A stretch of 64,000 nt of DNA from an uncultured Flavobacteriales bacterium. Its GTDB lineage: Bacteria > Pseudomonadota > Alphaproteobacteria > UBA8366 > CAVOAK01. Of this stretch, positions 12,854 to 14,516 are shown piece after piece (the stretch's first letter is position 1; each line of letters opens with the position of its first letter). The notes under the pieces were generated by a model. It made no database searches, was not told the origin of the DNA, and saw only the letters and a list, made by a program, of their open reading frames with translations. The position numbers were made by a program, and so were the translations under genes. The stretch covers positions 413,918 to 477,917 of the forward strand of contig CAYQNO010000019.1 in assembly GCA_964419045.1 (NCBI GenBank), read 5' to 3'.

Positions 12854-13099
12854 TTATTTGCTAGTTGGCGGGATTGTATCGTCACAGCCTTCGGTCGGAT
12901 TACGACGAATGCGCTCGATAGCAAAAATCGTTAAAACTAGGAAAATGCCAAGCATAGGGAATAAAATATAATTGATCCATTCGAGCCAAGTAGTAAGGCC
13001 AAATACGTTAAATATGGTCTCTAGAAATGGAGTGAAACAGCATATGGAAGTAAGTGCGCTTCCGGTGATACCTGTGCGCAGTAACTCGCGTGGCTTCAT
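12854..13099 (-). CDS. MerF-like small two-TM membrane protein (putative metal transporter)
   Basis: 81 aa. LTSICCFTPFL vicinal Cys pair in TM1, a second TM (ILFPMLGIFLVLTIFAI), and a single Cys in GCDD in the C-terminal tail. Its ATG overlaps the TGA of the upstream COG0523 gene. Resemblance to MerF is from memory of that family. Confidence 0.6.
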   Translation of the reverse strand: MKPRELLRTGITGSALTSICCFTPFLETIFNVFGLTTWLEWINYILFPMLGIFLVLTIFAIERIRRNPTEGCDDTIPPTSK

Positions 13100-14184
13100 G
13101 GTGTCATAGAGCCGTCACCGGCTACGAAAGCTGTAAACATTTTTTCGATAGGTTCTCGATTTAAATTTCGTGTAATCATCACAATGCGGGAGCGTTTATC
13201 GTTGTCGGGCCACATCTCAAGCATGGTTGGGGGATGAAAAACGTGCTGCACACCGTGGATTACGACCGGCTGATCCGTTTGATCCACGTTGAGAATGCCT
13301 TTGATGCGTAGCAAAGATTCCCCATGAAGTGCAATGAGAGCCTCAATCCAGCACACGAATCCTTCCCATTTAAGTGGTTCATCGTACGTTAGGCAGAAAG
13401 AACTGATGCTTTCGTCATGACGATTCACATCGTGGTGATGATCATGTTTGTGGTTGTGCGCTTTATGATCGTTGCCATTCTCCTTAACAGCATAGGACTC
13501 TTCTTGCAGCCAGTTCGCGACATCAGGTACTTTCTTGGTTGGGTCGAATAGGCCACAATTGAACAATGTTACGGGGTCAATTTCCCCATGCTTGACCTGG
13601 TAAATGGGAGCCGCGGGGTTGAGTTCCTGCAGTCTCTCGGTTAGTATCCTGACCTCATCTTTTTCAGCAATATCCCCTTTAGTCACTAGAAGTCGATCGG
13701 CAACAGCGGCCTGTTTTACCGACTCGTAATGACTATTCAACTGCGTTGAGCCATTGACTCCATCGACAGTTGAAATCACACCATCAAGTCGATAGCGTGC
13801 GGCAAGTACAGGATCGCTCATCAGTGTGTGAAGGATCGGTGCCGGGTCTGCTAGGCCAGTCGTTTCAATTACTAGGCGGTTGAATTCCGGTATTTCACCC
13901 TTGGCTCGGCGAACGAAAAGGTTGCGTAAAGTGTCGATCAAGTCACCACGGATGGTACAGCACAGGCAACCGCTGTTTAACAAAACAGTATCCTCGCCCG
14001 ATTGCTCCACGAGCATATGATCGAGACCCACCTCGCCGAATTCGTTGATGACCACTGCTGTATTAGCCATCCCTGGGTGATGTAAAAGACGGGCCAAAAG
14101 TGTCGTCTTTCCGCTACCAAGGAATCCTGTCAAAACTGATACGGGAAGTCGGGCGTTTGCCTCAGGAATCTGTACTTCGGTCAT
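13096..14184 (-). CDS. COG0523 G3E-family metallochaperone GTPase (CobW/YeiR/ZigA-like)
   Basis: 362 aa. Walker A GFLGSGKTTLL, CLCC (CxCC) metal motif at 13957-13968, ETTGLADP, His-rich insert HKAHNHKHDHHHDVNRHD at 13417-13470, CobW_C-like C-terminus. Confidence 0.9.
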   Translation of the reverse strand: MTEVQIPEANARLPVSVLTGFLGSGKTTLLARLLHHPGMANTAVVINEFGEVGLDHMLVEQSGEDTVLLNSGCLCCTIRGDLIDTLRNLFVRRAKGEIPEFNRLVIETTGLADPAPILHTLMSDPVLAARYRLDGVISTVDGVNGSTQLNSHYESVKQAAVADRLLVTKGDIAEKDEVRILTERLQELNPAAPIYQVKHGEIDPVTLFNCGLFDPTKKVPDVANWLQEESYAVKENGNDHKAHNHKHDHHHDVNRHDESISSFCLTYDEPLKWEGFVCWIEALIALHGESLLRIKGILNVDQTDQPVVIHGVQHVFHPPTMLEMWPDNDKRSRIVMITRNLNREPIEKMFTAFVAGDGSMTP

Positions 14185-14516
14185 CTAATTGTCTTCCTGT
14201 GGTGCTATTGTTTACCTACTACAACTAAGATAAGTATCCCTAACCTTAATTGCTTCTTGTACGGAAACTCAAAGCCCTATTCGCTCTGTACCATCGCGGA
14301 TAAGGCGGATATTCTTTGGATCTGTCATGCCTTGTATTGTAGCACATTCCCGGCAAATCAAAAGTCGGCCAGTATTTGGAAGGGAATTTTGGTGGTCTTG
14401 ATCATTGGCAAAAATCGGAATGGATGTCCAATTTGTGTAATAACATTGGTTGCATCATAACTTACAACGGTGTCCTATGAGGGTAATAATCTCATTCCTA
14501 ATTACGAATTTTACTT

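Follow-up and report, generated by a model that had tools for sequence, protein, structure and literature searches.

Co-option of a MerF-family membrane protein by a Zur-linked COG0523 operon in a small uncultured clade

Why should a gene of the MerF family, whose plasmid members belong to mercury-resistance (mer) operons, lie directly behind the gene of a COG0523 GTPase in a chromosomal region with no other mer gene? This question was raised by positions 12854-14184 of a 64-kb stretch of contig CAYQNO010000019.1 (the window, analysed at its full length of 64,000 nucleotides). The original prediction, made from the letters alone, had taken the two overlapping genes for a membrane thiol-relay metal carrier and a cytoplasmic GTP-dependent metallochaperone, more likely for Zn, Co or Ni than for Hg. 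Our comparison with related loci gave good support to the conclusion that a MerF-type carrier was co-opted into a Zur-linked COG0523 operon. The features of the pair, some of which were compared with the same locus in related lineages (the sister loci), were as follows.

12854..13099, minus strand: merF-like gene, 81 amino acids (aa), two transmembrane (TM) helices and an acidic/polar tail
13037-13042, minus strand: vicinal cysteine pair of the first TM helix (TM1), Cys20-Cys21 inside CCFTP; LTSICCFTPFL read from the sequence
12878-12889, minus strand: GCDD of the tail with a single non-conserved cysteine, read from the sequence
13096-13099, minus strand: ATGA, the 4-bp stop/start overlap of the COG0523 and merF-like genes, the same in all sister loci
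13096..14184, minus strand: COG0523 (G3E) GTPase gene, 362 aa
14101-14118, minus strand: Walker A motif GSGKTT, in its full form GFLGSGKTT
13957-13968, minus strand: CxCC metal site CLCC, in the context SGCLCC
13855-13866, minus strand: Walker B motif ETTG
13672-13683, minus strand: TKGD motif
13414-13467, minus strand: His-rich linker of 18 residues, HKAHNHKHDHHHDVNRHD
9 nt upstream of the COG0523 ATG, minus strand: Shine-Dalgarno-like motif AGGAAG

The smaller open reading frame (ORF) was assigned by its profile scores to the MerF family. It scored 44.3 bits (E 1.6e-11) against the Pfam model PF11431 (MerF), whose gathering score is 24.3, and 70.7 bits (E 6.8e-20) against the NCBIfam trans_MerF "equivalog" model NF033565, whose cutoff is 50; the MerF likeness put forward in the original prediction thus passed both thresholds. 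Sister MerF-like proteins scored 67.5 and 70.0 bits against NF033565, the MerF structure 2m67 in the PDB was matched with E 2.2e-12, and annotated plasmid MerFs were 40-50% identical. Hydropathy analysis revealed two hydrophobic segments, and an AlphaFold2 model of moderate confidence (mean pLDDT 65.6) placed helices at residues 4-36 and 43-66. The two predictions were concordant and supported a two-helix hairpin, in keeping with the length, the LTSICCFTPFL motif and the two-TM layout that had been claimed for the ORF. Residues C20 and C21 (SICCFTPF) were invariant across 18 aligned relatives, and the whole MerF core, which includes CCFTP and the FP(M/A)L of the second TM helix (TM2), was conserved in the COG0523-linked clade as in true transporters. 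Compared with the MerF of pMER327/419 and Tn5053-type mer operons (PF11431; 2m67, 2moz), to which it was ~45% identical over residues 3-67, the protein had the same length of 81 aa, the same hairpin and the same vicinal Cys pair in TM1. Unlike that MerF, it was encoded outside a mer operon, without MerR, MerP or MerA, and was coupled to COG0523 in a zur operon; it had no C-terminal Cys pair, as is the case for most environmental MerFs, and it carried the signature residues of the COG0523-linked clade, L16, T28, F33, I61, E62 and I64.

The larger ORF matched PF02492 (cobW; 154.4 bits, E 3e-45) and PF07683 (CobW_C; 78.2 bits, E 4e-22), with YjiA of E. coli (1nij) as its nearest solved relative (E 1.5e-51), and GFLGSGKTT and SGCLCC were invariant in 28 of its relatives. 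The description of this protein as a COG0523 GTPase with GSGKTT, CLCC and an 18-residue His-rich insert was therefore correct. Comparison with the subfamilies kept it within COG0523 and below every named equivalog cutoff: the top NCBIfam match was PRK11537/YjiA (224.7 bits, cutoff 361), followed by CobW (129.3 against 332), ZigA (119.2 against 600) and MRF (28 against 375). On these scores it fell within COG0523, but none of the named proteins (YjiA, ZigA, CobW or Mrf) was its orthologue. Its best named relatives, with 60-65% identity, were from the Rhodospirillales (Skermanella, Hwanghaeella, Pelagibius and Azospirillum). COG0523 proteins are GTP-dependent metallochaperones, many of them Zur-regulated, in which CxCC forms a high-affinity metal site (PMC2770081, PMC11672702). 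By gene linkage, as seen in the sister lineages, the GTPase grouped with the Zur-linked members. It shared with the Zur-regulated subfamily 1 (YciC/ZagA, ZigA, YeiR and the eukaryotic ZNG1) both domains (G3E and CobW_C), a GCxCC motif and a His-rich linker, and in the sister lineages it was likewise linked to a Zur-like gene (PMC2770081); it differed in that zur was the first gene of the same operon, in that a small membrane protein was its dedicated partner, and in that it was not an equivalog of YjiA, ZigA or CobW. Zur-regulated COG0523 genes are known to have as their neighbours genes for zinc-enzyme paralogues, ZnuABC, TonB receptors and DUF1826 (PMC2770081). The ATGA at 13096-13099 was found in the sequence exactly where it had been placed, and the overlap implied translational coupling of the two genes.

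The original prediction would have lost its ground if the adjacency had been peculiar to one genome. Instead, the unit zur, COG0523 and merF-like, in this order, recurred at the same chromosomal site in every clade member that could be placed, with an overlap of 8 bp between the FUR-family gene and the COG0523 start and of 4 bp between COG0523 and merF-like. The members placed were L165, L167/168, L169-171, L175-177, L178 and L179-182, all of which had the 4-bp overlap; the pairing of COG0523 and merF-like thus covered at least six diverged lineages, and synonymous sites were saturated between most of them. The closest COG0523 homologues were P0004 (85% identical) and P0005-P0007 (83% identical). 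The loci of P0004 and P0007 had ileS-ribF-(amidase) on one flank, while the opposite flank held genes for a MoCoBD oxidoreductase and a fatty-acid hydroxylase, and in each of them the COG0523 gene was followed, with a 4-bp overlap, by the gene of an 81-aa PF11431 protein. A protein search with the MerF-like profile found nine clade members (P0124-P0132), and all three that were looked up had this arrangement, as did the locus of a 96%-identical protein (P0001) on a contig of 958 nt. No merR, merP, merT or merA gene was found within ~6 kb in the sister loci. The clade members P0131/P0142 (MDP6061389.1, MDP6061390.1) bore the NCBI name "mercury resistance system transport protein MerF" and were assigned to a Pirellulaceae metagenome-assembled genome; their short contigs were probably mis-binned, because the synteny and the nearest relatives were alphaproteobacterial.

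The origin of the merF-like gene was apparent from the phylogeny. In a neighbour-joining tree of 147 distinct MerF cores, the COG0523-linked proteins formed one clade (198/200 bootstraps) nested among merA-linked MerFs, and the nearest relatives outside the clade (~50% identity) were encoded in merR-merT-merP-merF-merA operons of Rhodospirillales-like Alphaproteobacteria. The monophyly and the merA-linked neighbours pointed to one capture event out of a mer operon, after which the gene was inherited vertically and maintained by purifying selection. The ratio of nonsynonymous to synonymous substitution rates (dN/dS; pairwise Nei-Gojobori method, unsaturated comparisons) was 0.09-0.26 for merF-like, 0.06-0.13 for zur and 0.03-0.06 for COG0523. 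In at least six lineages, the merF-like gene has retained its reading frame, a product length of 75-83 aa (81 in most), the CC pair and the overlap of 4 bp. The predicted absence of merR, merA and merP from the window was confirmed, since a tblastn search of the entire 64 kb with MerR, MerT, MerP, MerA, MerD and MerE gave nothing better than E 0.85. A remnant of a decayed mer operon, which the original prediction had itself considered as an alternative, was rejected on the lack of mer remnants in the 64 kb, the dN/dS of 0.09-0.26 and the native base composition.

The gene that heads the operon gave an indication of the metal. In every sister lineage, the COG0523 gene was preceded by a FUR-family gene of 171 aa. 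The products scored 96-127 bits against the Zur model NF008646, below an equivalog cutoff (167) that is centred on E. coli, and 25-48 bits against Fur/PerR; the Zur model beat any Fur/PerR model about two- to fourfold. The helix PPTVYRALDFL of the sister regulator is presumably shared with E. coli Zur. With a Zur-like gene at the head of the operon in all sister lineages, the proposal that the metal is Zn, Co or Ni rather than Hg gained support. The zur-COG0523 core also occurred without merF in farther COG0523 relatives (64-69% identity), namely L172 and L183, both at the ribF-ileS site, and L185, the cultured Skermanella pratensis (CP030265). In these loci, COG0523 was followed by a gene for a Cds1-like cysteine desulfhydrase (L172), by a HAD-like fragment (L183) or by no coupled gene (L185). 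The occurrence of the core without merF indicated that zur-COG0523 was the ancestral unit and that merF was added later. The Cds1-like L-cysteine desulfhydrase gene (L172:7068-8171, also in L173 and L174; 543 bits against NF052478, cutoff 600) was translationally coupled to its 67%-identical COG0523 gene and represented a second, independent link of the zur-COG0523 module to thiol/sulfide chemistry.

Upstream of the COG0523 gene in the window, the following features, all on the minus strand, were found.

14188..14431, minus strand: zur pseudogene, with start TTG, a frameshift, a ~85-codon deletion and in-frame stops
14432..14474, minus strand: intact, conserved promoter block ahead of where zur used to start, GACACCGTTGTAAG ... 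TG-TTATTAC, resembling a -35 and an extended -10 element
14432-14446, minus strand: Zur-box-like 15-mer ATGTTATTACACAAA, with 3 mismatches to the Paracoccus Zur motif

Among the lineages compared, zur was inactivated only in that of the window. Three-frame reading revealed an N-terminal trace, LDIHSDF and DQDHQ separated by the frameshift, and the ~85 deleted codons were those of the winged-helix DNA-binding domain. The retained C-terminal half read GRLLICRECATIQGMTDPKNIRLIRDGTERIGL, a stop, VSVQEAIKVRDTYLSCSR and a second stop, and one CxxC cysteine was lost. Residues 105-167 of a sister Zur (L169) matched 14382..14188 in tblastn with 31% identity (E 4.6e-5), and no minus-strand ORF of at least 40 aa was found in the pseudogene region. 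The same state, with 1 nt difference, was present in three independent assemblies, which showed that the decay was not an assembly artefact. Since the local zur is dead, the COG0523/merF-like pair would be either constitutive or under a Zur encoded elsewhere. Within the promoter block, GACACCGTTG was invariant across 5 lineages. In the GACACCGTTGT...TGCTATGAT block, the extended -10-like TGCTATGAT ended 5 nt before the zur ATG (L167:5470-5495, L175, L179 and L169), a spacing that suggested a leaderless operon mRNA. A Paracoccus Zur motif verified by electrophoretic mobility shift assay, GTAAYGTAATAACAT (PMC5387054, Table 7), and the Gammaproteobacterial-type Zur box TGTTATNNTATAACA were searched for; the latter had no site at the locus, and its window-wide counts were below chance. 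Upstream of zur-COG0523 in Skermanella pratensis, a palindromic Zur-box-like sequence, GTTATATGATTAC (L185:3441-3457), scored 14.2/12.3 bits on the two strands with the Paracoccus-derived matrix, which is consistent with autoregulation of this core operon by Zur. The Zur of L169 (5493-6008) had CGEF in place of the zinc-site motif CGEC found in the others, and the gene was uncalled in L170. The amidase gene beside zur was split by an IS1595-family insertion in L169/L171 (2917-5406) and was also split in L170, there by an inserted ORF without a Pfam match. These observations on L169-L171 may mean that zur has begun to decay in one more lineage, or may stem from an error of long-read assembly.

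The pairing was then viewed from the side of MerF. When JGI metagenomes and a single genome for each GTDB species were scanned with a MerF profile, they yielded 160 other MerF loci (80 from reference genomes and 80 from metagenomes), whose context was read within ~5 kb. Mer neighbours were present in 136 of them, with merA in 113 and only merR, merT or merP in 23, and were absent from 24; a COG0523 gene was near MerF in 0/160, so that the pairing is not shared by the MerF family at large. The survey that the original prediction had proposed thus had a divided outcome, as MerF-like genes beside COG0523 were recurrent in one narrow clade and missing from the 160 other loci. The 24 loci without a mer neighbour included L012, L022, L031, L042, L049, L053, L063, L073 and L161. 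The neighbours of such MerFs encoded lysine-decarboxylase-like, GntR-aminotransferase, RecQ, PALP enzyme, DUF2238, class-V aminotransferase and PhyH proteins, and no common theme was found among the 24.

The cysteines of the tail were examined in the same material. Of 173 complete MerFs in the fetched loci, 128 had no Cys after TM2, 16 had one and 28 had a vicinal pair, and most of the MerFs without a tail Cys came from complete merRTPFA operons of Alphaproteobacteria. The textbook description of two vicinal Cys pairs is thus true for only 28/173 MerFs. The original prediction had remarked on a C-terminal pair reduced to one Cys; the single Cys (GCDD) was indeed present, but with 128/173 MerFs lacking a tail Cys it was not a distinguishing feature. 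It was replaced by Tyr (GYDD) in the 96%-identical relative, and the sister lineages had no tail Cys at all. The idea that the pair was lost to suit the new partner was rejected, because it is also missing from most environmental mer-operon MerFs, most of the alphaproteobacterial ones included. A long variant of MerF, 118-143 aa in length, was noticed repeatedly; its core is followed by two extra predicted helices with the motif LLFWLEFR(F/Y)A(L/I)R(I/L)S. The majority of its copies were within mer operons, and its loci were as follows.

L029, L048, L055, L067, L068, L071, L072, L077-L083, L146, L162, L164: long MerF variant

The window itself was a piece of housekeeping chromosome (folE, ABC transporter, lspA, ileS, ribF, mutL, purD, xseA, lpxK and kdtA) with a native, uniform base composition of ~47% GC; no mobile elements were found near the pair, and no rRNA was found in the window. 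The folE gene, which encodes a type-I (Zn-dependent) GTP cyclohydrolase I, was located at 1042-1707 on the minus strand, at a distance of ~11 kb from COG0523. In B. subtilis, FolE is a reported client of ZagA (PMC11672702), and nothing here showed a connection of folE to the pair.

Taken with what is known of MerF, these data suggested how the unit could work. MerF by itself is sufficient for Hg(II) uptake, its Cys pairs are exposed to the cytoplasm, and the first CC pair alone is important for transport by MerT/MerF (PMC5500634). Cadmium transport by MerF was also tested, according to a citation in PMC9412105 (Ohshiro 2020). By this reading, one MerF copy left an alphaproteobacterial merRTPFA operon and was inserted behind the COG0523 gene of an older zur-COG0523 operon beside ribF-ileS, where it has since been passed on vertically and stayed functional. 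In the proposed working, Zur would release the operon when zinc is scarce, and the COG0523 and MerF-like proteins would be made together via the overlapping stop and start codons. The MerF-like protein may then use the Cys-Cys pair of TM1 to carry a soft divalent ion, for which Zn(II) is the likeliest candidate, over the inner membrane. Because this pair faces the cytoplasm, the ion could be transferred through an exchange of ligands to the COG0523 protein, at either its CxCC site or its His-rich linker, and this protein would deliver it to client proteins using GTP. The COG0523 protein would thereby take the place held by the N-terminal domain of MerA (NmerA) in mercury resistance. Besides Hg, MerF is said to have transported Cd. 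Cells that express MerF without MerA are hypersensitive to Hg, as inward transport of mercury is harmful without the reductase. A MerF without MerA that is nevertheless retained under selection suggested a benefit unrelated to Hg detoxification, and by context and probable role the MerF-like protein is probably not a component of mercury resistance. We estimated at about 45% the probability that it was kept as a mover or presenter of a useful soft metal, most likely Zn(II), which is handed by thiol ligand exchange to COG0523. The more specific claim, that an 81-residue thiolate carrier of the MerF fold imports zinc or another nutrient metal and loads the COG0523 GTPase directly at the membrane, appeared rather unlikely.

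Several points weighed against a zinc carrier that feeds the GTPase. We know of no protein of the MerF family with experimental or structural evidence of Zn(II) movement. A preference of vicinal Cys pairs for Hg(II) above other metals has been reported (DeSilva 2002, cited in PMC5500634), and the signature residues of the COG0523-linked clade included no gain of a His or Cys ligand. In the window, where zur is a pseudogene, zinc control is uncertain. The 15-mer at 14432-14446 was the sole match to the Paracoccus Zur motif in the window, where 3.1 were expected by chance, and was thus not significant, and the homologous sister sites scored 7.5 bits on this motif, against 20-22 bits for the verified sites. 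The MerF family had ~1,100 members (E <= 1e-3) among 1.84 billion representatives at 50% identity, of which the COG0523-linked clade was one; with so narrow a distribution, whatever the MerF-like protein does is not a general solution.

The proposed hand-off would follow the logic of the relay from MerT/MerF to NmerA, in which a membrane Cys pair hands a soft metal to the cytoplasmic Cys motif of a soluble acceptor. It would differ in the acceptor, a GTP-driven CxCC chaperone instead of the GMTCxxC domain of a reductase, and in the cargo, a nutrient and not a poison. With the importers ZnuABC, ZupT/ZIP and AztABCD under Zur, the unit would share induction at low zinc; unlike them, the carrier has 81 aa and another fold, would use thiolate instead of His/Asp/Glu chemistry, and has no ATPase or binding protein.

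Four other explanations were weighed. The same module might serve another metal, in which case the MerF-like protein would supply COG0523 with a different thiophilic nutrient ion, for instance Co(II), Ni(II) or Cu(I), by import, and the regulator would sense that metal, or zinc indirectly. COG0523 does include chaperones for cobalt (CobW) and iron (the nitrile hydratase activator) (PMC2770081, PMC11672702), the GTPase was not an equivalog of a named zinc chaperone (ZigA, 119 bits against a cutoff of 600), and the regulator scored under the Zur equivalog cutoff. However, the Zur model fitted the regulator two to three times better than any other FUR-family model, the PPTVYRALDFL helix also pointed to Zur, the CobW score was 129 bits against a cutoff of 332, and neither a B12 riboswitch nor cob, ure, hyp or nitrile-hydratase genes were found near the pair; this explanation was judged improbable. 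A role as a non-transporting anchor or adaptor was judged to have a similarly small chance. The MerF-like protein would then tether COG0523 to the inner membrane, perhaps beside ZnuABC or a client in the membrane, with the Cys pair as a metal-bridged dock. The conservation of the entire MerF core (including CCFTP and the FP(M/A)L of TM2) as in true transporters spoke against such a role, and relatives with a 64-69% identical COG0523 protein do without a membrane partner, although the translational coupling suggests a stoichiometric complex, the C-terminal domain of COG0523 is thought to serve protein-protein interaction (PMC11672702), and a clade-specific IERIRR, which includes E62, was located at the cytoplasmic end of TM2.

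It was very improbable that the pair deals with toxic soft metals, with the MerF-like protein importing Hg or Cd and the Cys- and His-rich COG0523 protein sequestering them or handing them on to an efflux pump or a MerA whose gene lies elsewhere. In favour of this, the NCBIfam MerF "equivalog" model was passed, clade members already carry the mercury-resistance name, and the closest relatives outside the clade belong to real mer operons. Against this stood the absence of merR, merP, merT and merA from the 64 kb and from ~6 kb around the sister loci, a regulator that is Zur-like and not MerR, a site in the housekeeping chromosome and not on a mobile element, and the harm that Hg import does without a reductase. 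That merF-like is a functionless leftover of a mer operon, a neutral hitch-hiker, was already largely refuted and hardly credible, for although the gene evolves about three to five times faster than COG0523 (57-64% against 83-85% amino-acid identity), has a narrow distribution and stands beside a decayed zur in the window, its dN/dS was low with synonymous sites saturated, its frame, length, overlap and CC pair were kept in at least six lineages, and no mer remnants flanked it.

In the searchable full-text literature, which leaves most subscription journals outside it, no relevant paper was found that linked COG0523 with MerF, MerF with Zur, or mercuric transport with zinc limitation, nor any description of a dedicated small membrane partner for a COG0523 protein; as evidence of novelty this is weak. 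Mercury genes are not mentioned in the principal comparison of COG0523 neighbourhoods, by Haas et al. 2009. The phenomenon is restricted to a single small clade of uncultured bacteria, and the functional claims made for it are all inferred. A practical consequence concerns annotation: since 24 of 160 MerF loci (~15%) had no mer context, merF is not a reliable marker of mercury resistance, and surveys of resistance that count merF will include some genes that probably have nothing to do with mercury. The metal source and the partners of COG0523 proteins have been a long-standing open question, and here such a protein has a dedicated, co-translated membrane partner from a family whose metal chemistry is understood; as only two small genes are involved, the hand-off hypothesis is directly testable. 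The clade also offers an example of exaptation, in which a gene of the mer operon moved into a zinc-linked operon and was kept there under selection. If the proposed working is true, this would be the first relay from an importer to a G3E chaperone, and a mercury-resistance transporter would have been converted to the acquisition of a nutrient metal by a change of partner and not by a change of its metal-binding residues.

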